Of a DNA stretch of 64,000 bases, positions 25,460-56,792 are shown one piece after another. The DNA comes from Candidatus Roizmanbacteria bacterium (lineage in GTDB: Bacteria > Patescibacteriota > Microgenomatia > UBA1406): positions 105,581 through 169,580 of the forward strand of contig JANLHL010000038.1 in NCBI GenBank assembly GCA_024654535.1, written 5' to 3'. The notes under the pieces were generated by a model, which was not told the DNA's origin, made no database searches, and saw only the letters and a list, made by a program, of their open reading frames with translations. A program made the translations under genes and the position numbers. Positions within the stretch are counted from its first letter, which is position 1, and every line of letters starts with the position of its first letter.

Positions 25460-25698
25460 AGAGATGTAATAAATAAAACTTGTAATGCTGCTACAGCTAT
25501 TGCAGCCAGCAAAAAGTATTCTAACACAATTTTTACCGAAAGTGTTTTTGTACGTGCGTGTACCGTGAGTGACCATACAACATAATATGCGGCATATAAG
25601 TACAGTGATACTTTTTTCGTTTGTGTAGGAGCAACAAATAGTACGATAATCTCAACAATTGTGATGAGCATAAGAAGTATAAAATCAATTTGTTTCAT
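25456..25698 (-). CDS. small 3-TM membrane protein, unknown function
   Basis: 80 aa with three hydrophobic segments. 4-nt overlaps with both neighbours fit a translationally coupled operon member. No recognisable motif. Confidence 0.4.
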   Translation of the reverse strand: MKQIDFILLMLITIVEIIVLFVAPTQTKKVSLYLYAAYYVVWSLTVHARTKTLSVKIVLEYFLLAAIAVAALQVLFITSL

Positions 25699-35188: not shown

Positions 35189-35197
35189 AGATAATAT

Positions 35198-35269
35198 TGG
35201 TTGCGGAGCTGGGAGTCGAACCCAGTCTAAAAGGTTATGAGCCTTTTGTGCGCCGTACACTACTCCGCA
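35198..35269 (-). tRNA. tRNA with anticodon CAT (elongator Met or lysidine-modified Ile2), CCA encoded
   Basis: Minus strand: TGCGGAG TA GTG TACGGCG CAC A AAAGG CTCATAA CCTTT TAGA CTGGG TTCGACT CCCAG CTCCGCA A CCA. The cloverleaf folds by hand and the T-loop is TTCGACT. There is no GGG/CCC anticodon stem, so it is not an initiator. Confidence 0.8.
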
Positions 35270-35333: not shown

Positions 35334-36254
35334 TTAGTTTCTCTTAATCCAGTTTATTATTGCAGTATTTAATTCGCTTTCTTTTCCATCAAACCCATGG
35401 TTTGCTTGCGGAATGATAGTGAATTTGAATTGGGTAGAATTAGATACTTTTTTTTTGAGTAGTGCGACTATTTCTGGAACTTTGTTGTAGCAATATTCGT
35501 CTTCTTCGCCGTATACGACAAGTGTCGGTAGGGTAATAGAACGAAATTCCCGAAACAAACTCTTTTTTGATAAATGTAGGTTGTTAAAGTGTTCATAATA
35601 TGGAAAAATATTATAGTCACCATCTGGATGTATAGTGTCGTAGAGAGAAGTATAGGTCAGTATCATGCCATCAGTGTAATCAAGTGGGGCATAGGTATCT
35701 CCTTTTCCTTTTCTGATTACGTTGTAAGAATTTTTGAGCGCCTCATTGTATTTTTTTTCACCAAGCGCATTATAAAAAAGCCCAGCGTCATCGCCTCCTG
35801 AAATAAGAATATACCCTGCGCATGGGTTTGTAGATGTATAGTAGTTATATATACATATTTTATTTGCTCCTGTCGATGAGCCAGCGAGATAAAAAGTGGT
35901 ATACCCTTTTTTTCGTAAAAAATCTATAGCGCCATCAATGTCATAAACACACTCTTTTATTTGTTCGTATGCCATTCCAGCGAGAATTCTTGTTTCAGGA
36001 TAGGTATTTTTTCGCAATTTTTTTATGTAGTGAGCGCCTCTATTGTTAAAAGGAAAATAGGAAATTTGTTCTTTGTTTAGTTGTTGACCAAGTGAATTTT
36101 GTTTCGAAGGGGAGTAGAAGACAGACGAGCTACCGTTACCGTGAATGTACAGACATGCTTTTTTTGTGGGAGTAGTAGGTTCATATAATAATCCTGGGAG
36201 TAGTACGCCGTCTGTTGCCTCAAGTTCTACAAGCGATACGGTTGATGGGGTCAC
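35334..36254 (-). CDS. alpha/beta-fold hydrolase
   Basis: 306 aa. Motif ACLYIHGNGSSS, nucleophile elbow LAGSSTGANK (G-x-S-x-G-like), C-terminal His (ANHGFDG). GTG start with GTGA overlap. Confidence 0.6.
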   Translation of the reverse strand: MTPSTVSLVELEATDGVLLPGLLYEPTTPTKKACLYIHGNGSSSVFYSPSKQNSLGQQLNKEQISYFPFNNRGAHYIKKLRKNTYPETRILAGMAYEQIKECVYDIDGAIDFLRKKGYTTFYLAGSSTGANKICIYNYYTSTNPCAGYILISGGDDAGLFYNALGEKKYNEALKNSYNVIRKGKGDTYAPLDYTDGMILTYTSLYDTIHPDGDYNIFPYYEHFNNLHLSKKSLFREFRSITLPTLVVYGEEDEYCYNKVPEIVALLKKKVSNSTQFKFTIIPQANHGFDGKESELNTAIINWIKRN

Positions 36255-36907
36255 TTCTCATCAATGGCAACTGATTGTATATGCACTGGGTTTACGGGCG
36301 AAGACCCTTCTCCACCAGTTTGCATAGGCGCAGTTGCTATTTTATCGACTACGTCCATACCCTCAAGCACGTGGCCGAAGATAACATATGACTTTGGTAG
36401 TTCAGTGTCGGCGTGCATTATAAAAAATTGACTTCCGTTTGTGTTTGGTCCACTATTAGCCATGGCGACAGTTCCTCTGGTGTAGCTGCCTGCTATAGGT
36501 TCATCAGCAAATGTATAGCCCGGGCCACCAGTGCCATCTCCGCTAGGATCTCCTCCTTGGATCATAAAACCTTTTATGACACGATGGAAGATAGTATTTG
36601 CATAAAACCCCTTTTTTGCCAAATATACAAAATTATTTACGGTGATGGGAGTATCTTTTGTGTCCAAATTAATAGTGATGTCTCCTTCGGTTGTTGTGAC
36701 TGTGGCGGTATATGTTTTATTAACGTCGATGGTCATTGGGGGCTGTTTAGTATTTTTTTTTGTCATTTCTTCTGTTGGTTCAACTGGTATTTGAGAAGTT
36801 TGGCTTGTTGTTGTAGACTTTTGTGAGAAAAGATTATTCCATCCAAAAAGTACTATTACGATAAGTGCAGATCCCGCAAGTAATAAATATGCTACTTCTT
36901 TTTTCAT
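36251..36907 (-). CDS. cyclophilin-type peptidyl-prolyl cis-trans isomerase with N-terminal membrane anchor
   Basis: ATG at 36907 (MKKEVAYLLLAGSALIVIVLF). Motifs FHRVIKGFMIQGGDP, GTVAMANSGPNTNGSQFFI. Confidence 0.88.
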   Translation of the reverse strand: MKKEVAYLLLAGSALIVIVLFGWNNLFSQKSTTTSQTSQIPVEPTEEMTKKNTKQPPMTIDVNKTYTATVTTTEGDITINLDTKDTPITVNNFVYLAKKGFYANTIFHRVIKGFMIQGGDPSGDGTGGPGYTFADEPIAGSYTRGTVAMANSGPNTNGSQFFIMHADTELPKSYVIFGHVLEGMDVVDKIATAPMQTGGEGSSPVNPVHIQSVAIDEK

Positions 36908-37007
36908 GATCTGTAGTATAGTAACGCATATATTGGAACATGTCAAAGCATGTATTGCAAATTACGCACAAAGTTGGCACAATTGAACTGAAAGGAGATG
37001 AAAATAA

Positions 37008-37214
37008 ATGGCAGTATCATTCTACGATGTAAAAAACAAAGCTTCAGTCGAAGTAGCAGATGACAAACTACGCAAGACAAAGTATGAAAGAACGACCAAA
37101 TCTGGTTCTGTGCAAGTACGATATGCACTTCGCGGGACACTTGCAGATGGTCGCAAGGTCACAAAATTTGTGAGCAAAGAAACATGGGATCAACACAGTG
37201 TTCCTATGGAATAA
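37008..37214 (+). CDS. small basic protein (68 aa), unknown function
   Basis: Strong SD (AAAGGAG, about 10 nt upstream of the ATG), followed by a 10-bp stem-loop. Lys/Arg-rich sequence that looks beta-strand-like (MAVSFYDVKNKASVEVADDKLRKTKYERTTKSGSVQVRYALRG...). Sole plus-strand gene in a minus-strand context. Confidence 0.5.
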   Translation: MAVSFYDVKNKASVEVADDKLRKTKYERTTKSGSVQVRYALRGTLADGRKVTKFVSKETWDQHSVPME

Positions 37215-37226
37215 GATTGAATAATA

Positions 37227-37255
37227 CGTGAAGGCCTGCCTTTGGGGCCTTCACG
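37227..37255. terminator. GC-rich stem-loop between convergent transcription units
   Basis: cgtgaaggcc (37227-37236) pairs perfectly with ggccttcacg (37246-37255) around a 9-nt loop. It starts 13 nt after the stop of the 68-aa gene. There is no clean U-tract, so function as an intrinsic terminator is uncertain. Confidence 0.4.
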
Positions 37256-37438
37256 AGAAGCTAGACAATCTTTAATTTTTGTTTGTTTGGTCAGTTTTCG
37301 GAAAGAATAAAGAATGGGCCAATTCTCGTTCCTCGAAAAGTAGCTGTCCGTCTTCGCCCCATTTATGATGCTTGAACGTGGCTTCGGCCGGACACGAAGA
37401 GCTTCTAAACTCACATTCGTTCGCTAAGAATCTCTAGT

Positions 37439-37457
37439 GTCGGGATGGCCGGACTTG
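37439..37457 (-). repeat. exact 19-nt copy of the tRNA-Pro 3' end (T-loop 3' half to discriminator)
   Basis: The plus-strand string gtcgggatggccggacttg occurs at 37439-37457 and inside the tRNA gene at 37547-37565. The adjoining aaccgg of the T-arm recurs at 37531-37536. Confidence 0.85.
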
Positions 37458-37544
37458 CTCAACTGACAGTTTACGAACGTACGTAAGTAATTACTGTCAG
37501 TTAGTCCGCCGAAGCTTGAGCGAAGGCGGAAACCGGTTGTTTGT

Positions 37545-37621
37545 TGGTCGGGATGGCCGGACTTGAACCGGCGACCTTACGCACCCCATGCGTACGTTCT
37601 AGCCATCTGAACTACATCCCG
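37545..37621 (-). tRNA. tRNA-Pro (anticodon GGG), CCA encoded
   Basis: Minus strand: CGGGATG TA GTTC AGATGGCTA GAAC G TACGC ATGGGGT GCGTA AGGTC GCCGG TTCAAGT CCGGC CATCCCG A CCA. All four stems are perfect. Confidence 0.9.
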
Positions 37622-37697
37622 AGTATATGTATTTTATCATGCGCACGAATATCTTAGGCAAGGTATACTATGTGTGTTATACGTTATAAAAAGAACC

Positions 37698-37958
37698 ATG
37701 GATGAAAAGAAAAAACCAGACATGTCTATAAACATAAATTTGGATACCACACCTATTTTGTATACCGATAATATTTTCATGACGGTGAATGAAGATGGCG
37801 TGGTGTTGGATATAGCCCAAAAACTGGGGCCAACTAACCAAGTGCGTATAGTCTCGCGTATCGGCATGAGCAAAGACCACGCACAAAAATTCCTAAAAGA
37901 AATGGGAAAACTGTTGGTCATGAACCAGGGGCAGATAGAAACGGGAAGAAAGAATTAA
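37698..37958 (+). CDS. small cytoplasmic protein, DUF3467-like
   Basis: ATG at 37698 (MDEKKKPDMSININLDTTPILYTDNIFMTVNEDGVVLDIAQKLGPTNQVRIVSRIGMSKDHAQKFL...). The pattern YTDNIFMTVNEDGVVLDI resembles the DUF3467 core. The track start is GTG at 37674. Confidence 0.5.
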   Translation: MDEKKKPDMSININLDTTPILYTDNIFMTVNEDGVVLDIAQKLGPTNQVRIVSRIGMSKDHAQKFLKEMGKLLVMNQGQIETGRKN

Positions 37959-38266
37959 AACGTGCTGCGCATGCCACTCATTTGAGCTGCGCCAGCGCCA
38001 GCACCACCGAGAGCCATGGCTAGCAAACCAAATCCTTCTGCCAAATTTGCCGCTACGTCAGGCATTTTGTTTGTCTCGGTAATTGGAACGCCATCCGTGA
38101 GTGTGTTTGCCGGTACACCTTGATTTATTTTATACAATACTCCCGCACCAGTGAGGGCTAATGCAATGCTTCCTACAGTAATTGCATATCTCAATTTATC
38201 ACCCGGCGATAACCGATTATGATTACTTGCTATCTGATGTGGAATTCGTCTTATAGTATCTAACAT
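37955..38266 (-). CDS. small 2-TM membrane protein
   Basis: 103 aa with two Gly/Ala-rich hydrophobic segments. Stop codons of the convergent pair overlap (ttaa at 37955-37958). No recognisable motif. Confidence 0.4.
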   Translation of the reverse strand: MLDTIRRIPHQIASNHNRLSPGDKLRYAITVGSIALALTGAGVLYKINQGVPANTLTDGVPITETNKMPDVAANLAEGFGLLAMALGGAGAGAAQMSGMRSTF

Positions 38267-38309
38267 ATGCTGTTATTATATCATATTTCCAAGGGAAATT
38301 ATGCATGGT

Positions 38310-39752
38310 TTATATCTTTTTACGTTTGTTCTTTGGTACGAGCTTCACGACGACTCCCTGATACTGATCGGGGCCGTTATATATGCTGAGAGTTTCTTTC
38401 TGATTCTTTTCTAGGTACTGTGGTAAGAAATCTCCATATACATAATCATAACTGCCATTGTATATAACGTAGTCAGAATCATCGAGCATCTGTATATATA
38501 TTTCTTTGAACCCTGGCAATCCTAAGAATTGATATATGTTGATTGTTGGATCTTTTTTGAGAGCAAAATAGGGATCGGGAATACTCGAGATAAGAACAGT
38601 ACTGTGCGATGGAATTGAGCGCGCCACACTTTCTGTATAGACAGCGTATGAAAAACTTGATCCTCCATACTGTCCGATAGTACGCCAGACTAATACTATG
38701 CTTGCGAGGCTCATGAGAGCAAAAACAGATAGAATTTGTAGAAAATTTTTAGATTTTTTTTGTATTTTCTCAGATAAAATACTGCCATAACCGAGAAGTA
38801 AAAATGGTACCACGTAGACTTCGTACCAAAACTGTTTTCCAACGAGTATAAAGACCCATGAAACAATCAAACCTACCACTATAAAGGGGTGGACTGCTAT
38901 AGGTTCTAATAGTGCAAATACAAGTACCAAGATTGAGCCAAGAACCAAGGATAATTGTACATACGCCCTCATTCTATCTGAATCGTGAGTTATTTGATAA
39001 AAAAGGTTGGTCTCCAACTGCTTCCTCAGTGTTTGAATGTGCATTCCCTTTGAAAATATTTCAAAATCGAAGTGCAGTACAGAGAACCACCACAGAATGC
39101 ATATTGCTATAGGAATGGCAAAGAGCAATATGGATGTTAACAGCGATTTTTTGTTTTTAATGTTAATGAGCATGTATATGCCTATAACAAAGCCACCAAT
39201 AATACCATACGGTTGGAGTAGTACAGACAAACCTATACTCAATCCTGCAATACTATACCTCCACCATTTCTTTGTGCCAAGAATAAGTGTATATGCGATT
39301 GAATGGAGAAAGAGAATATATATCTCTGGTCTGCCAAAATGAGAGGCTCGCATAAACGTAAAATTAGTAAAGAAAAACAAGGCCAAGAGAGATAGCGAAA
39401 GTGGGCTAAACTTAAATATTTTCTTACCAAGATATATGATGCTTACATATAACACCCCTAGACTGGCAATAAACGCGAAAGTACGCTGTACATATGGTCC
39501 AAATCCAAACAGTTTATATAGTGCTGCATAGATATGAAACAAAAGGGGAGGGTACATAGTTATAACCGTATTACTACTCAGTACGTTTCCTAATAAGGAA
39601 GTTCCATAGACAGTATGATGCAATAGATTGTAGGCAACGTCTGCATACCATGTTTCATCCGGCCATATTTGGGGAAAATTCATAAACAGAAGCACATTAA
39701 TCAAGAAGTATATCGATGCGCCAACTATACTAACAATGAAGTATTTTTTCAT
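38310..39752 (-). CDS. PMT_2/ArnT-family membrane glycosyltransferase
   Basis: 480 aa. Motifs IWPDETWYADVAYNL and MYPPLLFHIYAAL, about 11 TM helices, C-terminal soluble domain. ATGA-coupled to the ArnC-like GT2 upstream. Confidence 0.72.
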   Translation of the reverse strand: MKKYFIVSIVGASIYFLINVLLFMNFPQIWPDETWYADVAYNLLHHTVYGTSLLGNVLSSNTVITMYPPLLFHIYAALYKLFGFGPYVQRTFAFIASLGVLYVSIIYLGKKIFKFSPLSLSLLALFFFTNFTFMRASHFGRPEIYILFLHSIAYTLILGTKKWWRYSIAGLSIGLSVLLQPYGIIGGFVIGIYMLINIKNKKSLLTSILLFAIPIAICILWWFSVLHFDFEIFSKGMHIQTLRKQLETNLFYQITHDSDRMRAYVQLSLVLGSILVLVFALLEPIAVHPFIVVGLIVSWVFILVGKQFWYEVYVVPFLLLGYGSILSEKIQKKSKNFLQILSVFALMSLASIVLVWRTIGQYGGSSFSYAVYTESVARSIPSHSTVLISSIPDPYFALKKDPTINIYQFLGLPGFKEIYIQMLDDSDYVIYNGSYDYVYGDFLPQYLEKNQKETLSIYNGPDQYQGVVVKLVPKNKRKKI

Positions 39753-40687
39753 GAACGCGTTTTTCGTTCAATTTTTTTCACTATATATTGCGGTCTCTTT
39801 TTTACTTCTTCAATTATCTTACCTATATATTGTCCGATAATACTTATTGCAAAGAGCTGTAGTGAGCACGCTGCTAGTATGGCGAGAAATACACTTATTT
39901 CAAATATAGAATCATGAGGGTGGGCATACTTCCATATAATCGTTGAACCAGCACCTATAAGAAACAATCCGAGAATAACAACAGATAACAACGTAATAAA
40001 CTCAAGCGGTGCGGTAGAAAATGAAAAAATTGCTTTGAATGCCCATTGTATATTTTTGCCAAAATTATTTGTCGTCTTGCCAAACATGCGTTCGGGTCGT
40101 GTATAAGCAATACCTTTTTGGCGAAAACCCACCCATGCCCGAAGCCCTCGTAAAAAATAATCTCGTTCAGGAAACGTAGTCAGGATATCAACGACGCGTC
40201 TATCTATTAGAGAGAAATCTCCTGCATCGTTCGGAATATTAATGAATGCTAAGCGCTTAAAGATACGGTAAAATAATTTATACGAGAACTGCATAAGCAA
40301 CGGTGCTTGGCGTTTTGTACGTACTCCATAGATCACGTCATAACCTTTTTTCCAGTGCGTATAGAACGTAGCGATGAGTTCTGGTGGATCTTGTAAATCT
40401 CCATCTAAAAGTACGACAGCTTTACCTTTTGATACACGCATTCCACTTAAGAATGCCATTTGAGAACTGAAGTTTCGAGAGTGGTGCACTGCGATAACAT
40501 GTGGATCTTTATTGACAAGCGTGTGTAGTATTGTCCCAGTTTTATCAGGGCTGCCATCATTAACAAATATTATTTCGTAGGGTATTTTTAGTTTTTTCAA
40601 AACAACGCTGAGTCTTTTGTACATTATTTCAATAGCTAGTTCGTCTTTATAGCATGCGATGATGGCAGAGATTATTGGTGTGCGCAT
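39749..40687 (-). CDS. polyprenol-monophosphate sugar synthase, GT2 (ArnC/GtrB-type)
   Basis: Motifs ISAIIACYKDE, FVNDGSPDKT, DGDLQDPPE, YFLRGL, two C-terminal TM helices, GQYIGKII. Confidence 0.85.
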   Translation of the reverse strand: MRTPIISAIIACYKDELAIEIMYKRLSVVLKKLKIPYEIIFVNDGSPDKTGTILHTLVNKDPHVIAVHHSRNFSSQMAFLSGMRVSKGKAVVLLDGDLQDPPELIATFYTHWKKGYDVIYGVRTKRQAPLLMQFSYKLFYRIFKRLAFINIPNDAGDFSLIDRRVVDILTTFPERDYFLRGLRAWVGFRQKGIAYTRPERMFGKTTNNFGKNIQWAFKAIFSFSTAPLEFITLLSVVILGLFLIGAGSTIIWKYAHPHDSIFEISVFLAILAACSLQLFAISIIGQYIGKIIEEVKKRPQYIVKKIERKTRS

Positions 40688-40689
40688 TT

Positions 40690-41175
40690 TTATCGTTCAA
40701 GATTAATATAACAGGGAGCATTATTTTTAACGACTTCCTGTACTAGAAGCGGTATCTCTTCGTCTTTTATCGGCCAATAGCCATTGATATTGTGTAATAC
40801 TCGGAGCACCTCTTTGTCTTCAGGTGCCCAATGTGAAAATCCATCACGCTCATAATCTTTATTTCTACCAGAACCTATTATCTTTACCGGAATATGCTCG
40901 TGATGTATATAGTTTCTGATAGTTTCAAAAGCTCGGTACAGCACAAAGCTAGAAATCGAATAGACAAAAGGAATTTTCCCCTTCAGTGCTAATCCCACGC
41001 CAATTCCCATCATGGCTTGTTCTGCAGCACCGACATTAATAAATCGTTCTGGAAATGAATCACGTATTTCATCCCACATTTTGTACCCTAAATCGCCCGT
41101 CACGATCCATATGTTGGTATTTTTCTCCATTGCTACATACAGTTCATCCGCAAACAACCGCTTCATATGTCTCAT
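40690..41175 (-). CDS. transketolase-like ThDP enzyme, pyrimidine-binding (Pyr) domain subunit, lacking the usual C-terminal TK domain
   Basis: About 161 aa from Met13 (41175). Motifs FINVGAAEQAMMGIGVGLALKG and PFVYSISSFVLYRAFETIRN match the transketolase/DXS Pyr domain. The protein ends straight after this domain. Confidence 0.7.
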   Translation of the reverse strand: MRHMKRLFADELYVAMEKNTNIWIVTGDLGYKMWDEIRDSFPERFINVGAAEQAMMGIGVGLALKGKIPFVYSISSFVLYRAFETIRNYIHHEHIPVKIIGSGRNKDYERDGFSHWAPEDKEVLRVLHNINGYWPIKDEEIPLLVQEVVKNNAPCYINLER

Positions 41176-41176
41176 A

Positions 41177-41884
41177 TTATGAATATATTTTTTTAGCCAA
41201 CAAATAATCACTATCAGTCATGACATAATAATGTGCATCTTGACCTTTGAGAAAAGGTAGTTGTTCATTTTTTGTACGCGAAATAATGATAGTCGGTTCT
41301 TTCCGTTTTTTTTGAATTTCTTGTGTAAGGTTGGACAAGTCGTGTCCATTGACATGCACTGTTTTTAGTCCAAAACCAGCAATTTGTGCATATAGTTTGG
41401 TCAATTCAATCTCTTGGTACGCCCCCCACCCATTTGCATTGAGAATGATAGTTAAATTGGTCATCTTCCTTTCACGAATAATACGAAAACTTTCCCATAT
41501 ACTACCCTCACTACATTCTCCGTCTGAGATCATGCAATATACTTGTTTGTTTTTATCTGCAAGCGCCATACCAATGGCAATAGGGAGACCTTGTCCGAGA
41601 CTGCCAGTTGATACGTTTATTCCATATTTATTACATCGATCAGGGTGAACGAATAACTTTTCAAGAACCGCCGTTGGTAAAATACCGAGGGACTCAAGTA
41701 CGACATATTGCGCTACCCCTGCATGTCCATTTGAAAGAACAAATGGTTCATCTGGTTTTTTAATTGAATACAGTACCCACAAGGCATCAATGGCTGTTAA
41801 GCAGGATCCTAAATGTGACGAGTGCCACATATGAGATACTTCAATAATTCGTGCACGAAGTTTTTTTTGAGTTACGTTAAGCAT
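41177..41884 (-). CDS. transketolase-like ThDP enzyme, N-terminal diphosphate-binding (PP) subunit
   Basis: Motifs SSHLGSCLTAIDALWVLY, GSLGQGLPIAIGMALA, ISDGECSEGSIWES (GDG-type ThDP/Mg motif variant). ATG at 41884; the track start is TTG at 41896. Confidence 0.75.
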   Translation of the reverse strand: MLNVTQKKLRARIIEVSHMWHSSHLGSCLTAIDALWVLYSIKKPDEPFVLSNGHAGVAQYVVLESLGILPTAVLEKLFVHPDRCNKYGINVSTGSLGQGLPIAIGMALADKNKQVYCMISDGECSEGSIWESFRIIRERKMTNLTIILNANGWGAYQEIELTKLYAQIAGFGLKTVHVNGHDLSNLTQEIQKKRKEPTIIISRTKNEQLPFLKGQDAHYYVMTDSDYLLAKKIYS

Positions 41885-42779
41885 GTTTTTGTGCAATTAT
41901 ACAGATATTTCCTAAAGGTAACCATAGGGATACTTTTAGTACAGCCTGCAAGGGTCTTGATCGGTGCAAAAGAACATATTTTTTAAATGATTTGGGCAGT
42001 GGAGCTAAGTGCAGTATGTGGCGCAGAGATACATAGTTAAATGGCTTATGAAGAGAGATTACTGAGAATTTATTTTTTTTGACGAGCGTGGTTAACGTGG
42101 AGGGCGAATACAAAAAAGTATGTTCAATGTCTATGATTGGGCTTTTTTCTTTTAATAAACGTGCTGATACGCTCTGTACATTGTGTAAGAAGAATATAAT
42201 CATTCCGTTTTCTTTGAGCAACGAATGGCAGATTGATAAAAATGTATTTGGATCGGGGATATGGTCGAGTGTTTGAAAACAGAGTATATAGTCAAAGAAT
42301 TTCTCAGGAAATGTATCTCTTTTTAAGAGACCTCTTGTAATGTTATTACGAATTTTAGGTTCTGCTTTCGCGATTGCGTTTCTACTTGGTTCAATACCAA
42401 ATACCTGTTTGAATCCCTTTTTTCGAAGTGCGGATAACATGAACCCATTTCCACAGCCTATTTCAAGAATTGATGCTTTTGTACGGGTAGAAAGTACAGG
42501 GAGAACCTCGTGTAAGTATGTAGTTGTGAGTTGTTCAAGCTCACCTGTATACGTGAACTCACTTTTATTGTAAAGAGACTCCAGTATTCTCGTATCCATA
42601 ATGGGGTTTGACCGAACGAGCCCATCTTTTTTACATTGCACAATTTGGTAATGTATGCGATCGGGAAGTCTTCGTGCAGAGAAAGTTTTGACGTTAATAT
42701 CTGACTTGTTAAAATTAGCTTTGTATAGCACCGTATAATTGTCCTTAGAATTACAGAGGGGGCAACTCGTTTTATTCAT
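41877..42779 (-). CDS. class I SAM-dependent methyltransferase with N-terminal Cys4 zinc ribbon (sugar C/O-methyltransferase-like)
   Basis: CPLCNS...CKKDG zinc ribbon. Motif I is ILEIGCGNGFM. FDYILCFQTLDHIPDP. The architecture recalls NDP-hexose methyltransferases with a Zn-binding N-domain. Confidence 0.72.
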   Translation of the reverse strand: MNKTSCPLCNSKDNYTVLYKANFNKSDINVKTFSARRLPDRIHYQIVQCKKDGLVRSNPIMDTRILESLYNKSEFTYTGELEQLTTTYLHEVLPVLSTRTKASILEIGCGNGFMLSALRKKGFKQVFGIEPSRNAIAKAEPKIRNNITRGLLKRDTFPEKFFDYILCFQTLDHIPDPNTFLSICHSLLKENGMIIFFLHNVQSVSARLLKEKSPIIDIEHTFLYSPSTLTTLVKKNKFSVISLHKPFNYVSLRHILHLAPLPKSFKKYVLLHRSRPLQAVLKVSLWLPLGNICIIAQKHA

Positions 42780-43713
42780 GTAAGTAAAGAATGTGATTTT
42801 TTTTGTACCACTGCCAAAATAATAGTAGGCCTTTTGTTAGACTTGTCTGTGGCTTCCATTGCAAAAGTTTTTTTGACTTTGCTATATCTGCTACCCACGT
42901 TGTAGCATCCCATATACGTTTTGGCATGCTGCCCCAATCGCATACTGTTGATACTTTGGTTATTTTAAAAGCTTTTTGTACGACTGTTTCTAAAGATGAT
43001 TGTATGCCTGTACCAATGTTAAAAACTTCTCCTGGATATTTTTGTAAATATGAAACAGCCATATAGGCGTCAAGAATATCATCGATATATATAAAATCGC
43101 GCGCTATAGATGGGTCGACAAGTTTCATCGTTTTTTGAGAATACAGACAATTCATGAGTTGTGGCATAAATCGAGTAGGTTCTTCGTATGGTCCATATAC
43201 TGAAAATGGTCGAATAGTCACTATTGGTTTGTTGAGCTTTCTTGCTTCATAGGCGCACATGAGTGTTTGTGCAGCTTTCGTTGTCGCATAGTAGCTTGCA
43301 GGTTCGAGTATATCTGTTTCTTTCATAGGCTTATCCTTAAAGCCATACTCAGACGAACTACCAGTGTTAACAAATAATTCATAGTCATATTTTTCAGTAG
43401 CTTTTAACAAATTCCATGTACCTTCGATATTTGTTTTAATAGCGCTCCTTCCATCTTGTTGATTGGGATACGCGCCGTAAGCGGCAAAATGATAAATTAT
43501 TGAAGGACGTGACTTTTTTATAATTCTGACAAGTTCTTTTTCTTTTGAAAAATCCGCTGAGTGTACAGTAACTTGACTTAGAATATCCTGTATCCTCCAC
43601 AGATTTGCTTGTGGTCTGAGTAGAATGTGGACATTGTTTCCTTCATTTACAAGCCTTCGAACCATGCATGAACCAATAAATCCAGAAGCTCCCGTAACGA
43701 AGTATGTTTTCAT
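42772..43713 (-). CDS. NAD-dependent epimerase/dehydratase (extended SDR)
   Basis: Motifs VTGASGFIGSCMV, GSSSEYG, YYATTKAA (YxxxK), RPFSVYGPYE. Confidence 0.8.
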   Translation of the reverse strand: MKTYFVTGASGFIGSCMVRRLVNEGNNVHILLRPQANLWRIQDILSQVTVHSADFSKEKELVRIIKKSRPSIIYHFAAYGAYPNQQDGRSAIKTNIEGTWNLLKATEKYDYELFVNTGSSSEYGFKDKPMKETDILEPASYYATTKAAQTLMCAYEARKLNKPIVTIRPFSVYGPYEEPTRFMPQLMNCLYSQKTMKLVDPSIARDFIYIDDILDAYMAVSYLQKYPGEVFNIGTGIQSSLETVVQKAFKITKVSTVCDWGSMPKRIWDATTWVADIAKSKKLLQWKPQTSLTKGLLLFWQWYKKNHILYLHE

Positions 43714-43719
43714 AGTGAC

Positions 43720-45825
43720 TTAATGAGCGAGTATAGCAAAATTAATACTTTTATTAAATCGAGGAAAGAAAGCTGTTCCGATATGTTCTCCTGGAGAAAT
43801 ATGGACATAAGACGATTCTTGTTTCAATGTTCCTGAAATAGTTGCACTTGAATATGGCTCAATCACAAGAGGGACTATGATATCTGTTGAAATCTTTGTA
43901 TCACCGACTTGTATATGGGAGGTGAGATATCGTTTATCATAGAGACTTTGTATAACACATCTCTCTTTGTTTGTTATGGTAAGTGTATACGGTAATAGAG
44001 TCAATTGTGGAACTGCATTTGGAAAATTTATCGAAATAGAAACGTTAGGTTTTACACATAATGGAGGTATTGAAGACTCTTTACTGGTACTCAGTATCAA
44101 AGTTTTTTCATCTTTATACACGGTAAGAGTTTTAGCATACGTATTGTCGAGTATTTTTTTCTGCAGCTTTTCGGTAAGTGAATCAAGGTGCACAATGACA
44201 TATTGAACACCGATACTTCCTAGGTAACGAATAAACGTATCGTTAATTGTTTTACTTTTTTCCAAAATATTTTGATATTCAATGGGTGTGAAAGCACTAT
44301 AGCCATTTACTGTTTTTTCATGGGTATATAGTGCCCAATTAACATAACCTAGCTCTTTCCATTGCACATCTTTTGTATACATAGGTAGGTGCAGGGTCGG
44401 AATATCGTAAAGCTTTTGAAAAGTCCTTGGATTTTCTCTTAAATACGTCTGTATCTGGGCAATTCGTTGGGATTGTTCGGTAAAGGTTATTTGGACAATA
44501 TTTTCTGCAACAATAACAGACATTAGTATTGCTGTGGCAAAAGAGTACAGCCAGTGTCTATTTATATTCTTTTTAATAAAAAGCATGCCATATGCACATA
44601 CGAGAGAGAAAGGAATGTAAAAGATGTGTTGAAACCGAGTTGGTACACGCAGAGCGCGAAGAGGAAATAGTAGATCATACATATAGTAATAAAGTAATGG
44701 GTGAGGGACTGTGTTTGGTGGATCATTCCATCCAGTATAAACTGGACCGAAGGTAAGCAAAGCACTAACAATAAAAACGGCACCAAAACCTATCGCAGCA
44801 TTTTTGCTAAGTGCACCTTTTTTTATTTTAATAACGTAGAGGAGCCCAAATATGAGTAAGAGTGATGGAACAATATTAAGAAACAGCGTGTGTTCACTGT
44901 AGTTGAAACCTACTATGTCTTTTGGAAAGCGGTTGTCGTTTACATGAGTATGATCTTGAACGTAGAGCATATTTCGCGGATCTGGCGATACCCAATCTAT
45001 ACCCCTGGCAGAAAAATGGATTGTTTCTATTATACTGCGAGTAATGGACTCTTTGTGAGAAAATGATAAGTATGGTTTAGTGATAAAGTAAATAAATGGG
45101 ATATAGATAATAACAACAATACTTGTTATAAGGAGCTTATGTATATAGGGTAATCCTTCTTTAAATTTACTAAAGAGAATTGGAGCACAGAAAATAGGTA
45201 TGAAAATTAAGGTGAAAACCCCGTAGTAAACTGCAGTAAGCCAATTGAGTGTTAAAACTCCATAAAATATAATTGCAGAGCGCCACGATGGGGAACGTAT
45301 ATATCTATAGCCCCACAAAAACACGAGCGGCAAAAAATATCGTTGCAGCAGATCAGCATGGTGCGGAAAGCTTGCAAATACCAGTGGGTTATAGGTAAAT
45401 ATAAGTGCACCAATCAACGATGCGTATGTATTTTTTACAAAGTATCGAATCGTTACAAAAGAGCTTATATACGTTAATACAAAGGACAGCACAATAACGA
45501 GATTGAAGGATAGAATAATATGATTTGTTAAAATATAGAGTGGAGTAAATAAAACAAGGCCAGGGAAAAACATATGGTCAGAATAGGCAAACGAATTCGA
45601 GAAAGGATAAAATTGATTACTCGTAAAAAATTGTTGCATATTGAAGAGTGATCCATTTTTTAATGCCTCGGCGATATGCCACATCGTCCACCCTCCATAG
45701 GCGTGGTCGGAAGCGTCTGAGTAGTAGGTTGAGAGGTGTGCAGACAGAGGCCATGTTAATATGACTGCTAACACTAGGGCAAGTATACATAGATATAGCC
45801 AGTGAAATTTGTATAGTTTTGCCAC
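43720..45825 (-). CDS. large (701 aa) polytopic membrane protein, COG5617/YfhO-like GT-C candidate with C-terminal soluble domain
   Basis: GTG start. The N-terminal region YYSDASDHAYGGWTMWHIAEAL...FYPFSNSFAYSDHMFFPG resembles 10910-12634. About 13 TM helices and a C-terminal domain of about 230 aa. Confidence 0.55.
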   Translation of the reverse strand: MAKLYKFHWLYLCILALVLAVILTWPLSAHLSTYYSDASDHAYGGWTMWHIAEALKNGSLFNMQQFFTSNQFYPFSNSFAYSDHMFFPGLVLFTPLYILTNHIILSFNLVIVLSFVLTYISSFVTIRYFVKNTYASLIGALIFTYNPLVFASFPHHADLLQRYFLPLVFLWGYRYIRSPSWRSAIIFYGVLTLNWLTAVYYGVFTLIFIPIFCAPILFSKFKEGLPYIHKLLITSIVVIIYIPFIYFITKPYLSFSHKESITRSIIETIHFSARGIDWVSPDPRNMLYVQDHTHVNDNRFPKDIVGFNYSEHTLFLNIVPSLLLIFGLLYVIKIKKGALSKNAAIGFGAVFIVSALLTFGPVYTGWNDPPNTVPHPLLYYYMYDLLFPLRALRVPTRFQHIFYIPFSLVCAYGMLFIKKNINRHWLYSFATAILMSVIVAENIVQITFTEQSQRIAQIQTYLRENPRTFQKLYDIPTLHLPMYTKDVQWKELGYVNWALYTHEKTVNGYSAFTPIEYQNILEKSKTINDTFIRYLGSIGVQYVIVHLDSLTEKLQKKILDNTYAKTLTVYKDEKTLILSTSKESSIPPLCVKPNVSISINFPNAVPQLTLLPYTLTITNKERCVIQSLYDKRYLTSHIQVGDTKISTDIIVPLVIEPYSSATISGTLKQESSYVHISPGEHIGTAFFPRFNKSINFAILAH

Positions 45826-45826
45826 T

Positions 45827-46366
45827 CTAGATATTTACTTTATAACGGTGTGCATATTTTTTACGTAAAGACGAGATCTTTGGTGAAATAATTATTTGGC
45901 AGTACGGCTGGTTGGAATTTTTTATGTAATACTTTCTATGATAACTTTCAGCCTCGTAGAACTTTATCAGAGGTTTAATCTCTGTTACTATATGCCCTGA
46001 AAATTCATCTTTGTTCAACTTTTCCATTATGCTCCTTGCCTCTTTTTTCTGTGTCTTACTTGTGTACAAAATAATTGAACGATATTGACTTCCAACATCG
46101 TTTCCTTGTCTATTTTTAGTAGTGGGATTATGAATATGAAAAAAAATATCGAGCAGATTTTCGTATTGAATTGTCATTGGGTCAAATTCTATACGTGTAA
46201 CTTCAGCGTGTCCAGTGTCTCCAGAACAAATTTGCTCATAGGTAGGGTCAATGCTTTTTCCACCTGCATAGCCTGGAGATACTGAGACAACTCCTTTCAA
46301 TCTGCTAAATAGGGCTTCTGTGCACCAGAAACAACCAGCTCCAAAGATAGCAATATCTTTGTTCAT
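45827..46366 (-). CDS. msrA: peptide-methionine (S)-S-oxide reductase
   Basis: GAGCFWCTEALF (catalytic Cys motif), GHAEVTRIEFDP, DVGSQYRS. Confidence 0.9.
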   Translation of the reverse strand: MNKDIAIFGAGCFWCTEALFSRLKGVVSVSPGYAGGKSIDPTYEQICSGDTGHAEVTRIEFDPMTIQYENLLDIFFHIHNPTTKNRQGNDVGSQYRSIILYTSKTQKKEARSIMEKLNKDEFSGHIVTEIKPLIKFYEAESYHRKYYIKNSNQPYCQIIISPKISSLRKKYAHRYKVNI

Positions 46367-46743
46367 TTTTTAGGTACAAACTGTAGTGACAGAGAGTTCA
46401 CGCAGTGACGAGTATTTTTTTTTGTAAAATTCTCACCTACAAACACGTGTCCAAGATGAGCCTTGCAGGTTGAACATTGTATTTCTGTACGTATACCATC
46501 GGAATCTGGAATATGTATAACTGCATCTTTTATTTCCTGGTCAAAGCTTGGCCATCCACATCCAGAATGGAACTTGTTATTTGAAATATAAAGCGGTGCG
46601 TTGCATCTGCGGCAAGCATAGATACCTTCCTCAAAAAAAGCATCAAATTTACCGCTGAATGGTTGCTCTGTGCCTTTATGAATTATTATTTTTTCTTCTT
46701 CTTCGGTAAGTGAATTGAGCAGCATTACGTTACTATACTGCAT
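46363..46743 (-). CDS. msrB: peptide-methionine (R)-S-oxide reductase
   Basis: CRRCNAPLY, GCGWPSF, CSTCKAHLGHVF, RHCVNS (catalytic Cys). Confidence 0.9.
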   Translation of the reverse strand: MQYSNVMLLNSLTEEEEKIIIHKGTEQPFSGKFDAFFEEGIYACRRCNAPLYISNNKFHSGCGWPSFDQEIKDAVIHIPDSDGIRTEIQCSTCKAHLGHVFVGENFTKKNTRHCVNSLSLQFVPKK

Positions 46744-56703: not shown

Positions 56704-56775
56704 GCCAATGTAGCTCAGGGGTAGAGCAATCGTTTCATAAGCGATCGGTCGCAGGTTCGATTCCTGCCATTGGCA
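56704..56775 (+). tRNA. tRNA with anticodon CAT (elongator Met or Ile2), CCA not encoded
   Basis: GCCAATG TA GCTC AGGGGTA GAGC A ATCGT TTCATAA GCGAT CGGTC GCAGG TTCGATT CCTGC CATTGGC A. The cloverleaf folds by hand. It lacks initiator features. Confidence 0.8.
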
Positions 56776-56792
56776 CAGGTTTATTAGACTAA

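Follow-up and report, generated by a model that had tools for sequence, protein, structure and literature searches.

The characterised enzymes of the GtrB family use UDP- or GDP-sugars, and PgfE supplies the sugar to PgfS. Enzymes acting on lipid-linked sugars include DprE1/DprE2, which epimerise decaprenyl-P-ribose, and ArnD, which acts on Und-P-Ara4FN. Transfer of a hydroxyacetyl group to a keto sugar by split transketolases (TKs) has so far been proposed but never shown, and the 13 candidates listed are all from Streptomyces (PMC12247030). Here, we describe a split TK-like pair encoded among glycosylation genes of a Candidatus Roizmanbacteria bacterium; the window, the whole stretch of DNA that was analysed, is 64,000 nucleotides in length.

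Organization of the cassette

As depicted by the ORF listing of the window, seven co-directional minus-strand ORFs are the entire content of positions 38310–45825 (Table 1); the domains of the encoded proteins were assigned by Pfam and NCBIfam searches. The 701-aa ORF and the SDR gene are separated by 6 nt, and the SDR and methyltransferase (MT) genes overlap by 8 nt. The overlap is 8–20 nt at the MT/PP junction, followed by a gap or overlap of about 1 nt (PP/Pyr), a 2-nt gap (Pyr/GT2) and a 4-nt overlap (GT2/480-aa ORF). With every junction overlapping or no wider than 6 nt, the seven genes form one tightly packed operon, as the preliminary description had stated. msrA and the 701-aa ORF are 1 nt apart; the distance becomes about 52 nt if the NCBI-annotated 684-aa start is used. 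The adjacency of msrB/msrA to the cassette was found again only in one close relative (L087), indicating that the msr–cassette arrangement is lineage-specific.

Table 1. Coordinates of the cassette, its flanking genes and other relevant genes in the window
Feature	Positions	Strand	Size	Assignment or remark
701-aa ORF	43720–45825	-	701 aa	GT-C fold glycosyltransferase
Extended SDR	42772–43713	-	313 aa	Pfam Epimerase
Zn-ribbon SAM methyltransferase	41877–42779	-	300 aa	Methyltransf_23
Mini-transketolase PP subunit	41177–41896	-	239 aa from TTG	Transketolase_N/DXP_synthase_N; from the ATG used by orthologs, 41177–41884, 234–235 aa
Mini-transketolase Pyr subunit	40690–41211	-	173 aa	Transket_pyr; from the conserved MRxxF start, 40690–41175, about 161 aa
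GtrB/PgfS-like GT2	39749–40687	-	312 aa	GT2
GT-C glycosyltransferase, PMT_2 (ArnT/PMT-like) family	38310–39752	-	480 aa	Weak PMT_2 match
msrB	46363–46743	-		Directly upstream of cassette
msrA	45827–46366	-		Directly upstream of cassette
Canonical three-domain transketolase	54128–55978	+	616 aa	Housekeeping enzyme, contrast to split pair
rmlA	24701–25576	-		Size, N-terminal sequence, motifs
rmlC	24225–24704	-		Size, N-terminal sequence, motifs
rmlB	23221–24228	-		Size, N-terminal sequence, motifs; T-D-E present
rmlD	22391–23224	-		Size, N-terminal sequence, motifs
UDP-glucose dehydrogenase	20947–22278	-		Pfam
UXS-like SDR	19994–20950	-		Pfam

Conservation, fusion and distant viral relatives

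The close clade was counted in those 22 related metagenome loci that have 4 kb or more of flanking sequence on either side. The PP subunit is accompanied by the Pyr subunit in 21 of them and by an SDR in 21; an orthologous GtrB-like GT2 is present in 18. A large membrane protein (at least 380 aa and at least seven TM segments) occurs in 17 of the loci, and 15 contain the MT, which is an optional module of the cassette. The extended SDR is swapped for an adh_short protein in four of the 22, and the SDR gene lies ahead of the MT and TK genes in most loci. Pfam-annotated cassette loci come from Daviesbacteria, Omnitrophota, another candidate phylum and a Patescibacteria MAG (L007); MT homologs assigned by name to Gottesmanbacteria, Elusimicrobia and Ratteibacteria were found as well. 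In the co-occurrence test that had been set beforehand, the five enzymes were found together in Daviesbacteria, other Patescibacteria and Omnitrophota. Since the arrangement recurs across phyla, it is not a chance juxtaposition. The cassette is adjoined by a UDP-glucose dehydrogenase (UGDH) gene in L005, L007 and L110.

In Dyadobacter luteus, SDR and GT2 are parts of a single 664-aa protein, whose gene is located between the TK_N and TK_pyr genes, beside a PMT_2 GT-C. The SSSEYG motif is present in its SDR domain, and its GT2 domain shares 52% identity with the GT2 of the cassette. This protein is a Rosetta-stone fusion, which we count in favour of the route proposed below.

A distant TK pair was found in 80 viral loci, together with RfbH (51 loci), a T-D-E 4,6-dehydratase (56) and an RmlD-like reductase (53). 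The RfbH (E1 3-dehydrase) of locus L148 scored 460 bits, above its cut-off. The dehydratase/RfbH and the RmlD-like reductase flank TKN-TKP in fixed order; the gene logic is the same as that of the yersiniose pathway, with the TK sitting in the place of YerE. Pfam scanning of ten neighbours in L148 revealed no YerE-type (ALS/decarboxylase-family) ThDP enzyme. The YerE-type role first suggested for the TK-like enzyme agrees with the position that its distant family members hold in yersiniose-type gene sets. In a further 13–14 loci, nucleotidyltransferase-SDR-TKN-TKP genes lie beside a terminase and a portal gene; no GT2 is present in these phage loci, which argues for soluble NDP-sugar substrates.

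The two-subunit mini-transketolase

The top PDB match of the PP subunit, which is 100% identical to a protein (P0001) of a Candidatus Roizmanbacteria MAG, is the split TK 6yak (90 bits); the Pyr subunit matched 6yaj with 82 bits. His23, His53, His79 and His217 of the PP subunit are invariant and correspond to His26, His66, His100 and His261 of E. coli TK; GSLGQG, Asp120 and Asn150 are also invariant. The Pyr subunit retains the Glu that activates ThDP (AAEQ), an Asp (in xDG), a His (in SHW) and the Arg at either terminus; it has lost the Ser (GDLGY) and His (SGR) of the phosphate site, two of the four phosphate-site residues. In the Pfam search, Transket_pyr is its sole domain and Transketolase_C is absent; the sequence stops exactly at the final Arg of the Pyr domain, and the subunit therefore has no TK C-terminal domain. 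In contrast, the resident 616-aa TK matched Transketolase_N, Transket_pyr and Transketolase_C (158, 145 and 75 bits, respectively), and the split pair is only about 28% identical to it. With the cofactor and catalytic residues all kept, the pair should be catalytically competent but is not the housekeeping enzyme, in line with the original view that it is no ordinary transketolase.

The methyltransferase and the SDR

The MT is a class I SAM methyltransferase (Methyltransf_23, 88 bits in Pfam). Cys6, Cys9 and Cys49 of its Zn-ribbon are invariant, with either Cys or Asp as the fourth ligand. The top Foldseek matches of its AF2 model (pLDDT 92) are KijD1, MtmC and TcaB9, with TMq values of 0.60–0.65 compared to 0.43–0.53 for generic MTs; the DIEH motif aligns with Glu224/His225 of TcaB9. 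The MT is of the same structural type as TcaB9/KijD1/MtmC (TylC3), although most of their C-terminal domain is missing, and the expected kinship with NDP-4-keto-sugar C-methyltransferases was confirmed in structural terms. We propose that it C-methylates beside the sugar keto group. The fold of NDP-4-keto-sugar C3-methyltransferases, together with the E-H dyad, independently implies a 4-keto-sugar intermediate.

The SDR (Epimerase, 155 bits) has an invariant NTGSSSEYG motif and the YxxxK pair. In the PDB it matched UDP-GlcA and UDP-Glc 4-epimerases best, and its family profile scored 189 bits with UDP-GlcA 4-epimerase, 165 bits with UDP-Glc 4-epimerase and 145 bits with the Rmd ketoreductase. 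Overall sequence places it closest to the 4-epimerases rather than to known ketoreductases, which counts against the branched-sugar route proposed below. By residue alignment, neither the T-D-E dehydratase triad nor the NAD-binding Asp at the β2 end was found in the SDR; the β2-end position is Arg or Lys in 25 of the 31 family members. This basic residue and Glu122 are shared with the RmlD-like reductases encoded after the TK pair in the viral loci. An SDR supplying the keto-sugar, as claimed in the preliminary description, is probably wrong; we propose that the enzyme is an NADPH-dependent ketoreductase acting after TK branching.

The glycosyltransferases

The GT2 contains a DGDLQDPPE motif and two C-terminal TM helices. 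Its score was 226 bits with GtrB of Synechocystis (5ekp), compared to about 110 bits with ArnC structures; the NCBIfam scores were 219 bits for PgfS and 131 bits for ArnC, both under cut-off. Its identity as a polyprenyl-phosphate glycosyltransferase stands, but it is more similar to GtrB/PgfS than to ArnC. The protein is 61–64% identical to cassette GT2s of other phyla and 34–39% identical to GtrB paralogs in the window, and constitutes a distinct orthogroup travelling with the TK pair.

The 701-aa protein has about 13 TM helices and a C-terminal extracytoplasmic β-sandwich. It gave no Pfam or NCBIfam match; some of its homologs carry DUF6311. The top 22 Foldseek PDB matches of its AF2 model (pLDDT 89.2, pTM 0.90) are all GT-C (probability 1.0, TM 0.40–0.46), and the GT-C matches include STT3, AftD, AftA, DPY19, PglB, ArnT and ALG12. 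Its first loop contains two nearly invariant residues, Asp37 and Asp40. What had been described simply as a membrane protein is more precisely a second GT-C transferase, by the model comparison. The 480-aa protein matched PMT_2 with E = 3.4e-4; 35 of the 42 members of its family match PMT_2 (best 7e-16), in agreement with its earlier GT-C assignment. Its loop-1 motif W30-P-D32-E33 is invariant, and 533 cluster representatives match at E ≤ 1e-3.

Proposed pathway

We propose, with about even confidence, that the cassette combines a Gtr-type (lipid-monophosphate) module for surface glycosylation with a short C-branched-sugar tailoring pathway. The pathway would start from an NDP-4-keto sugar, most likely dTDP-4-keto-6-deoxyglucose from rmlAB 15–20 kb off, or another NDP-4-ketosugar, and the TcaB9-like Zn-ribbon MT could optionally C-methylate it beside the keto group. 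The mini-transketolase would add a ThDP-borne two-carbon unit to the sugar carbonyl, yielding a tertiary alcohol with a keto branch of two carbons. Since none of the TK histidines has been lost, glycolaldehyde is the probable unit; pyruvate-derived hydroxyethyl may be the alternative. In a YerF/RmlD-like role, the SDR would reduce the new carbonyl with NADPH. The dedicated GtrB-like GT2 would load the finished sugar onto polyprenyl phosphate at the inner membrane face and, after flipping, both GT-Cs would attach it to extracytoplasmic protein or glycan acceptors. The preliminary description had suggested a branched or methylated sugar delivered through a lipid-monophosphate carrier; gene content, folds, conserved residues and synteny agree with most of this, the role of the SDR being the one point that we correct, and we infer the chemistry.

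The minus-strand genes at 19994–25576, outside the cassette, are likely the precursor supply, a link that we infer, and RmlB is a more likely source of the keto-sugar than the cassette SDR. Of 27 close-clade loci, just one has a T-D-E dehydratase as a neighbour, and we therefore assume that the precursor is supplied from outside the cassette. Against the branched-sugar route count the lack of any clear keto-sugar-forming enzyme and of a GtrA-like flippase in the cassette, and the two adjacent quaternary carbons that C3 methylation plus C4 branching would create, which is chemically demanding. The characterised GtrB-family members use UDP/GDP-sugars, in contrast to the dTDP-sugars used by TcaB9-type MTs and RmlB, and this mismatch counts against the route too. 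So does the lack of an in vitro demonstration of TK-catalysed ketone addition (PMC12247030).

Alternative readings

The first step might instead be catalysed by the SDR, as an NAD(P)+-dependent 4-oxidase that may also decarboxylate UDP-GlcA and that releases an NDP-4-keto-sugar to the MT and TK, the order originally envisaged; the branch carbonyl would be left unreduced or be reduced by another enzyme. We consider this rather unlikely. It would make the cassette self-sufficient, fitting the 26 of 27 loci with no adjacent dehydratase, and it agrees with the SDR gene being ahead of MT and TK in most loci, with the resemblance to the UDP-GlcA-acting SDRs MoeE5 and BcUGAepi and with UGDH nearby in several loci; however, the basic β2-end residue and the shared Glu fit reductase partners and not the oxidising or dehydrating SDRs of the data set, the fusion of an N-terminal SDR to GT2 in Dyadobacter better fits the last soluble step, and viral pathways put the reductase after the TK. 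Pgf/Gtr-like glycosylation with an ordinary sugar is unlikely as well. The SDR would then be a UDP-hexose/hexuronate 4-epimerase feeding Gal, GalNAc or GalA to the GT2, by analogy with PgfE, and the TK and MT would be only co-regulated, acting on a non-sugar substituent or metabolite. Its nearest solved relatives (UDP-GlcA 4-epimerases, GalE and MoeE5), the top NCBIfam match of the GT2 to PgfS, and UGDH beside the cassette in three loci and in the window are consistent with this; yet the SDR family is without the β2 Asp that holds NAD+ in the compared epimerases MoeE5 and T. maritima GalE, an adh_short protein can replace the SDR, phage loci without GT2 keep the SDR next to the TK pair, the fold of the MT is that of NDP-ketosugar C-MTs, and the SDR-GT2 fusion is nested within split TK genes.

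Tailoring could also be lipid-linked, with the GT2 making polyprenyl-P-hexose before the SDR, TK and MT act at the membrane face, as in the DprE1/DprE2 and ArnD analogies. An SDR-GT2 fusion would tether the SDR to the membrane, a 250-aa classical SDR, like DprE2 in size and class, is present in some loci, and the cassette is without a keto-forming NDP-sugar enzyme. This is very unlikely, however, given that in phage and viral loci the SDR and TK genes are accompanied by a nucleotidyltransferase or by NDP-sugar dehydratases but by no GtrB-like GT2, that the nearest MT structures bind dTDP-sugars, and that TKN, TKP, MT and the cassette SDR were unflagged in a hydropathy scan (flag, at least three TM segments). 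An ordinary pentose-phosphate split transketolase with incidental glycosylation neighbours was already disfavoured, and its probability is very low: clear TK-family homology and the complete set of catalytic histidines are set against the canonical TK of the same window and the low identity to it, the missing C domain and phosphate-site Ser and His, and a glycan-gene context kept across well over 100 loci.

No part of the proposed branched-sugar pathway has been characterised previously. If the proposal is true, a candidate-phylum bacterium would build an unusual carbon-branched surface sugar with a stripped-down transketolase, encoded in an operon that is kept across several phyla.

Organization of the cassette and its surroundings

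The region 38310–45825 is filled by seven co-directional minus-strand ORFs, whose junctions range from a 6-nt gap at one extreme to a 20-nt overlap at the other. In Pfam and NCBIfam searches, Epimerase (155 bits) was assigned to the SDR, followed by a class I SAM methyltransferase (MT), Transketolase_N in the PP subunit (TKN), Transket_pyr without Transketolase_C in the Pyr subunit (TKP), and GT2. ORF number, strand, packing and domains are all as the preliminary description had given them, and its claim of one seven-gene operon was borne out. The msrB and msrA genes are located upstream on the same strand; as their adjacency to the cassette was seen again solely in the near-identical relative L087, a functional tie between msrAB and the cassette was dropped. 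A promoter and terminator scan gave 34 sites, compared to 34.4 expected, which is background.

The first 46 kb of the window are mostly a glycosylation island (positions 1–20000 and 34259–35260), which holds at least eight polytopic proteins of 450–590 aa; of five that were scanned, two gave weak PMT_2 matches and three gave none. Smaller GT2s are also found within the island. The many polytopic proteins and the membrane-anchored GT2s imply that one small genome encodes several lipid-monophosphate glycosylation systems in parallel. A 333-aa GT2 ORF, called from GTG at 35260, overlaps at its 5′ end with a tRNA-Met gene; owing to this overlap, the true start of the GT2 is probably an internal MNKFLLSIIVPV methionine. 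The GC maximum of the window is at 36000–38300 (0.42 versus ∼0.37). The public annotation of the MAG apparently starts the MT late, giving a 254-aa protein in which the conserved zinc ribbon and N-terminus are lost; the longer start is backed by the orthologs, which are ∼300 aa in length. For the 701-aa protein, a putative GT-C enzyme, the annotated start is 17 codons later (684 aa).

Coordinates of the cassette genes and of neighbouring features
Feature	Position	Strand	Remark
480-aa membrane protein	38310–39752	−	cassette
Cassette GT2, 312 aa	39749–40687	−	cassette
Pyr subunit (TKP)	40690–41175	−	cassette
PP subunit (TKN)	41177–41884	−	cassette
Methyltransferase (MT), 300 aa	41877–42779	−	cassette
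SDR, 313 aa	42772–43713	−	cassette
701-aa membrane protein	43720–45825	−	cassette
Further membrane-anchored GT2	8447–9385		
Further membrane-anchored GT2	18855–19997		fused to GtrA_DPMS_TM domain
UGDH and UXS-like SDR	19994–22278		
rmlA, rmlB, rmlC, rmlD	22391–25576		rmlB with T-D-E
Further membrane-anchored GT2	34259–35260		
tRNA-Met	35198–35269	−	
tRNA-Pro(GGG)	37545–37621	−	just downstream of cassette
Antisense 94-aa ORF pair	37637–37921, 37674–37958	−, +	fully overlapping
103-aa Gly/Ala-rich ORF	37955–38266	−	immediately downstream of cassette
Canonical three-domain transketolase, 616 aa	54128–55978	+	short mammalian-like length class; 8 kb from cassette
tRNA-Met	56704–56776	+	

A minimal two-subunit transketolase

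The best solved relatives of the TKN-TKP pair are the structures of the split transketolase of Carboxydothermus hydrogenoformans (6yak, 90 bits; 6yaj, 82 bits), with which the pair has the superfamily, the cofactor motifs, the catalytic histidines and the activating Glu in common. The family residues were compared by alignment with the canonical transketolase of the window. The PP subunit keeps four histidines, H23, H53, H79 and H217, which correspond to H26, H66, H100 and H261 of E. coli transketolase; it also keeps GSLGQG and the Mg2+ ligands D120 and N150. The Pyr subunit keeps the ThDP-activating Glu (AAEQ), the Asp of xDG and the His of SHW.

Different from the canonical and split transketolases, the window pair has no C-terminal domain. 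Transketolase_C was not detected in the pair by Pfam, and every Pyr subunit of the mini-transketolase family, 158–175 aa in size, terminates precisely at the closing Arg of its Pyr domain; 2 nt further on, the cassette GT2 gene begins. The PP subunit, ∼235 aa in size, is also shorter than that of the split enzyme (309 aa). In the four-residue sugar-phosphate pocket (Arg, Ser, His and Arg), both Arg are kept, whereas the Ser and His are replaced in all members; the Ser site of the Pyr subunit reads GDLGY and the His site reads SGR. New Arg, Tyr and Trp residues are conserved in the family, whose best matches alone form at least 120 clusters (90% identity) and which is also found on 296 viral contigs. 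The preliminary description had weighed an ordinary split transketolase against its own proposal; the lack of the C domain, the loss of the phosphate-site Ser and His, the glycan-biosynthesis neighbours and the canonical enzyme elsewhere in the window all argue against it. Because that canonical transketolase is present, the pair is not the pentose-phosphate transketolase of the cell.

The best-matching families of the pair are Transketolase_N, DXP_synthase_N and Transket_pyr. A weak match to the cofactor motif of TPP_enzyme_C was observed, and the pair does not have the TPP_enzyme_N/M/C homology of YerE and acetolactate synthase. Phosphonopyruvate and sulfopyruvate decarboxylases are of similar two-subunit size, yet they were rejected, as the Pfam and NCBIfam matches are to the transketolase and DXS families. 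The score for the sulfopyruvate decarboxylase beta subunit is 25 bits, and no match to the PEP mutase family (PEP_mutase/ICL) was found among the annotated recurrent neighbour-gene clusters. Since the transketolase histidines that contact the C1-hydroxyl of the donor are kept, the transferred group would be a glycolaldehyde (ketol) unit; DXS-like use of pyruvate may be the alternative.

The methyltransferase resembles NDP-4-keto-sugar C-methyltransferases

The preliminary description had named the TylC3-type C-methyltransferases as the comparison for the MT. In a Foldseek search with the AF2 model (pLDDT 92), KijD1, MtmC and TcaB9 were the top matches, with TMq of 0.60–0.65 over ∼318 columns; the values for generic methyltransferases are 0.43–0.53. 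The predicted structure thus has the zinc-ribbon and SAM-domain fold of the TylC3/TcaB9-type enzymes, and the proposed relationship held in the model. Like TylC3, TcaB9, KijD1 and MtmC, the MT has an N-terminal zinc ribbon, a Rossmann SAM domain and an E-H dyad. Its DIEH motif aligns with E224/H225 of TcaB9; E219 is nearly invariant and H220 is invariant. Three of the zinc ligands, C6, C9 and C49, are invariant in the family; the fourth is either Cys or Asp. However, compared to those enzymes, which are ∼410–420 aa in size, the MT is of 300 aa and shares only ∼15% sequence identity; its C-terminal domain is largely missing and no Methyltransf_14 (PF08484) match was found. In addition, Y222 of TcaB9 is not conserved, and the fourth zinc ligand of the window protein is Asp. 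As the predicted fold is that of NDP-4-keto-sugar C3-methyltransferases, it independently implies a 4-keto-sugar intermediate.

The SDR and the source of the keto-sugar

The SDR was compared column by column among groups of the same data set. True 4,6-dehydratases have Asp at the β2 end and the T-D-E motif (47/47 for both). The RmlD-like reductases encoded after TKP carry Arg at the β2 end (42/47) and the motif S-G-A-E. In the cassette SDR, the β2 end is hydrophobic (L, T or V) followed by Arg or Lys (25/31) and the motif is S-S-S-E; its Glu, conserved in 31/31, is located in the same column as the Glu of the RmlD-like reductases. In SDRs, an acidic residue at the β2 end indicates NAD and a basic one NADP; by this rule, the cassette SDR looks like an NADPH-using reductase. 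A final, soluble keto-reduction fits the N-terminal fusion of an SDR to GT2 in Dyadobacter, the replacement of the SDR by adh_short proteins at some loci and the presence of a reductase after the transketolase in viral loci.

The preliminary description had regarded the SDR as the supplier of the keto-sugar. This is probably not the case: the T-D-E triad and β2 Asp of RmlB-like dehydratases are lacking, the β2 end is basic, and the Glu is common with the partner reductases. If the SDR is a reductase, the keto-sugar-forming step is not encoded in the cassette. A T-D-E dehydratase is next door in 1 of 27 close-clade loci; in the window, the NDP-4-ketosugar-type MT and the SDR are adjacent, and rmlB is ∼17 kb away. 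The source of the keto-sugar is the weakest link of the pathway model, and for this reason two other readings of the SDR are kept. It may oxidise the sugar first, in which case it would act before the branching step. Or it may be a plain epimerase, which agrees with its overall similarity, as in the family profile its nearest relatives are UDP-GlcA/UDP-Glc 4-epimerases (6zl6, 189 bits; 4zrm, 165 bits). The column comparison points to the reductase.

One lipid-sugar synthase and two putative GT-C transferases

The cassette GT2 matches the polyisoprenyl-phosphate glucosyltransferase GtrB (5ekp) with 226 bits over residues 6–304, and ArnC with ∼110 bits. It has the GT-A domain of GtrB-type enzymes, and its translation contains their DxDLQDPPE signature as DGDLQDPPE, as well as two C-terminal hydrophobic helices. 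Its scores are below the NCBIfam equivalog cut-offs for PgfS (219 versus 500 bits) and ArnC (131 versus 529 bits). Of the earlier assignment as an ArnC-like GT2, the polyprenyl-phosphate glycosyltransferase type stands, whereas the closeness to ArnC does not, since GtrB is the nearer relative. With its counterparts in other phyla, the GT2 shares 61–64% identity, but with the two other GtrB-like paralogs of the window only 34–39%; it thus forms an orthogroup of its own, which accompanies the transketolase pair.

The window 480-aa protein scores below the PMT_2 gathering threshold (21.3 versus 26.1 bits). Through its family, in which 35 of 42 members match PMT_2 and the loop-1 W-P-D-E is invariant, its earlier description as an ArnT-like GT-C is supported. 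The 701-aa protein has no Pfam or NCBIfam match, and eight of its large membrane neighbours and homologs have no Pfam match. The model of this protein (pLDDT 89, pTM 0.90) ends in a CARDB-like β-sandwich, and its top PDB matches are all GT-C enzymes (STT3, AftD, AftA, DPY19, PglB, ArnT and ALG12). With D37 and D40 nearly invariant, the predicted fold and the acidic first-loop residues suggest that it is also a GT-C enzyme. Taken together, these assignments give an operon in which a single lipid-sugar synthase is combined with two GT-C transferases. No GtrA-family flippase gene is found within 38310–45825, and the GtrA_DPMS_TM domain of the window is present only on a GT2 outside the cassette.

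Conservation of the gene set

Homologs of the PP subunit, 235–265 aa in size and 53–59% identical, are abundant; a protein of 100% identity is encoded in a Candidatus Roizmanbacteria (CPR/Patescibacteria) MAG. In three Pfam-annotated neighbourhoods, from Daviesbacteria, Omnitrophota and another candidate phylum, the same partners flank TKN-TKP. A metagenome scan with family-specific motifs gave 80 loci, in which ORFs were called and searched with the window proteins, and the remainder was clustered. Partners were counted in the 22 close-clade loci (score against the window PP subunit ≥225 bits) with at least 4 kb on both sides. The Pyr subunit is present in 21/22, as is an SDR, which is the orthologous extended SDR in 17 and adh_short in 4. 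The orthologous GT2 (at least 200 bits) is encoded in 18/22, a membrane protein (≥380 aa, ≥7 TM segments) in 17/22 and the orthologous MT in 15/22. These counts indicate that the core is SDR-TKN-TKP-GT2 plus at least one large membrane protein, and that the MT is a frequent option. Co-occurrence outside this genome had been set beforehand as the test by which the proposal could fail; the same partners do surround TKN-TKP elsewhere.

The genome contigs were scanned with the full PP-subunit alignment, which is keyed on the generic transketolase motifs GSLGQGLPIA and FVLSNGH. Among the matches listed, most are ordinary or split transketolases of ∼30% identity, and locus L007 is the only true member. 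The alignment was trimmed to family-specific motifs before the metagenome and viral scans. The genome-contig scan, which served as out-group, also gave variants from Dyadobacter and Bradyrhizobium. In the cultured bacteroidote Dyadobacter luteus RS19 (L015:7786–17320, NZ_QNUL01000007.1), the order is PMT_2 GT-C, TK_N, a 664-aa SDR-GT2 fusion, TK_pyr+C, a 564-aa protein, an acyltransferase (Acyl_transf_3) and GT2. The 664-aa protein is a single SDR-GT2 polypeptide whose gene separates the TK_N and TK_pyr+C genes of a full-length split transketolase, and its SDR domain contains the SSSEYG motif of the cassette SDR family; the 564-aa protein has no Pfam or NCBIfam match. A similar-looking locus in a Cytophagales MAG (L014) is cut by the contig end. 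D. luteus offers a culturable organism for a genetic test of the system. In Bradyrhizobium diazoefficiens SZCCT0138 (L008:5954–13048), a GDP_Man_Dehyd-like SDR gene is clustered with those of a 375-aa protein not matched by Pfam, a 309-aa SDR and a full-length split transketolase, and with a 444-aa GT2 gene in divergent orientation. The split transketolase of this cultured alphaproteobacterium may likewise be sugar-linked.

Distant relatives in viral contigs

The family-specific motif scan of IMG/VR gave 296 matches, the viral members being 35–45% identical; gene contexts were counted in the best 80 of these loci. In one context (context A), TKN-TKP is flanked by an RfbH/E1 3-dehydrase (51 loci) and a 4,6-dehydratase (56 loci), and an RmlD-like reductase follows directly after TKP (53 loci). 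The distant members are thus encoded with enzymes for the formation and subsequent reduction of an NDP-4-keto-sugar, as are the ThDP-dependent enzymes for C-branching of NDP-keto-sugars, a functional class that contains YerE, AviB/alpha-KADH2 and the proposed transketolases. At locus L148, the RfbH match (460 bits) is above the NCBIfam cut-off, and no YerE-type enzyme was found among ten Pfam-scanned neighbours. The gene set of context A follows the logic of yersiniose biosynthesis (4,6-dehydratase, RfbH 3-dehydrase and reductase; PMC12247030), with the mini-transketolase taking the place of YerE. L148, which is also L173 (IMGVR_UViG_3300012953_000014, 156,635 bp), and ∼50 other IMG/VR loci are on large marine ‘viral’ contigs with a whole glycan cluster, which contains GT4 and GT2 glycosyltransferases, RfbH, the 4,6-dehydratase, the mini-transketolase and the RmlD-like reductase; these contigs may be mis-binned cellular DNA.

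In the other context (context B; 13–14 of the best 80 viral loci), a nucleotidyltransferase, SDR, TKN and TKP are encoded beside the terminase large subunit and portal genes. It is found on phage-like contigs (L137, L139, L144, L164 and ∼13 of L167–L246, e.g. L169, L174 and L199), with the terminase large subunit and portal genes following one or two genes downstream, and with no GT2 or MT. Since any GtrB-like GT2 is absent from context B, the SDR and transketolase would act on soluble NDP-sugars. A tblastn search of GenBank phage records gave no member of the family, so that no cultured phage in GenBank carries one; none of the matches exceeds 35% identity, and they appear to be ordinary transketolases or mis-binned bacterial DNA. 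The IMG/VR loci suggest that the core enzymes are present in many phages, where they may serve to modify glycans of the host or the virion.

Proposed pathway and comparison with known systems

Based on homology, residue patterns and gene context, from which every catalytic step is deduced, we propose a pathway whose chance of being correct we put at about even. An NDP-4-keto-sugar, optionally C-methylated, would receive a C2 branch from the mini-transketolase, and the branched sugar would be reduced by the SDR. The GtrB-like GT2 would then load it onto polyprenyl phosphate, and the two GT-C enzymes would transfer the sugar outside the membrane.

The proposed chemistry is like that of YerE/YerF in yersiniose A synthesis, where a ThDP-bound C2 unit is added to CDP-3,6-dideoxy-4-keto-D-glucose and the product is then reduced. 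However, YerE is a ThDP enzyme of the decarboxylase (acetolactate-synthase-like) superfamily, whereas the window enzyme is a two-subunit member of the transketolase superfamily; the mini-transketolase is therefore at most a functional analogue of YerE. Different from the yersiniose system, the window cassette has no 3-dehydrase or dehydratase, and its product would go to a lipid-monophosphate carrier instead of an O-unit.

Split transketolases of the same superfamily have been invoked for C2 ketol (hydroxyacetyl) addition to keto-sugars in miharamycin and amipurimycin synthesis, as a proposal only and uncharacterised in vitro; a 2025 review gives 13 candidate split transketolases, all in Streptomycetes and none characterised (PMC12247030). 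Ketone-accepting transketolases are still a proposal; no transketolase has been shown to add an acyl-anion equivalent to a sugar ketone (PMC12247030). The Streptomyces transketolase-like pairs among our genome-scan matches listed (L046–L063), which may not be the miharamycin or amipurimycin genes, score only ∼46–56 bits to the window PP subunit. Their Pyr proteins are ∼293–322 aa, or 534–669 aa when fused, long enough for the transketolase C-terminal domain that the mini-transketolase Pyr subunits lack. The range also differs: the mini-transketolases occur in CPR and Omnitrophota and on hundreds of viral contigs, the proposed split transketolases in Streptomyces. With subunits of ∼235 and ∼160 aa, the mini-transketolases are a compact family, and one far larger than the 13 candidates of the review. 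As the gene context names candidate substrates, the question of ketone-accepting transketolases becomes directly testable.

In the Gtr (GtrA/GtrB/GtrX), Pgf (PgfS-PgfE-PgfM of Streptococcus mutans) and ArnC-ArnT systems, a GtrB-like GT2 makes the polyprenyl-phosphate sugar and a GT-C enzyme uses it outside. The cassette resembles them in its GtrB-like GT2 and two GT-C partners, and, as in Pgf, in the SDR within the operon; however, it has no GtrA flippase, and its GT2 is not assigned to the PgfS or ArnC equivalogs. To our knowledge, a ThDP enzyme has not been described in any Gtr, Pgf or Arn system. Its occurrence in the cassette, together with that of a C-methyltransferase, implies that the sugar is heavily tailored. 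We found no published description of the mini-transketolase family or the cassette, and literature on transketolase with O-antigen, polyprenyl or RfbH does not describe a system of this type. The cassette is new wiring of known kinds, namely ThDP branching, TylC3-type C-methylation and Gtr-type delivery, around a so far undescribed transketolase subfamily.

A broader reading, which we hold tentatively and at somewhat below an even chance, is that this large, so far unrecognised family of minimal two-subunit transketolases in CPR, Omnitrophota and viral contigs represents the second main way in which nature makes C-branched sugars, next to the YerE type. Full-length split-transketolase versions of the gene set occur in Bacteroidota and, possibly, in Bradyrhizobium. 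In CPR and Omnitrophota, the product, sometimes C-methylated, would be loaded onto polyprenyl monophosphate by a dedicated GtrB-like enzyme and installed at the surface by GT-C enzymes. If true, this lipid-monophosphate/GT-C delivery route would be one not known for any branched-chain sugar. The mini-transketolases would also be on offer as small new biocatalysts for tertiary-alcohol synthesis. The envelope chemistry of CPR and Omnitrophota is almost unknown; our results suggest that their surfaces are decorated with an unusual branched sugar through the lipid-monophosphate/GT-C route.
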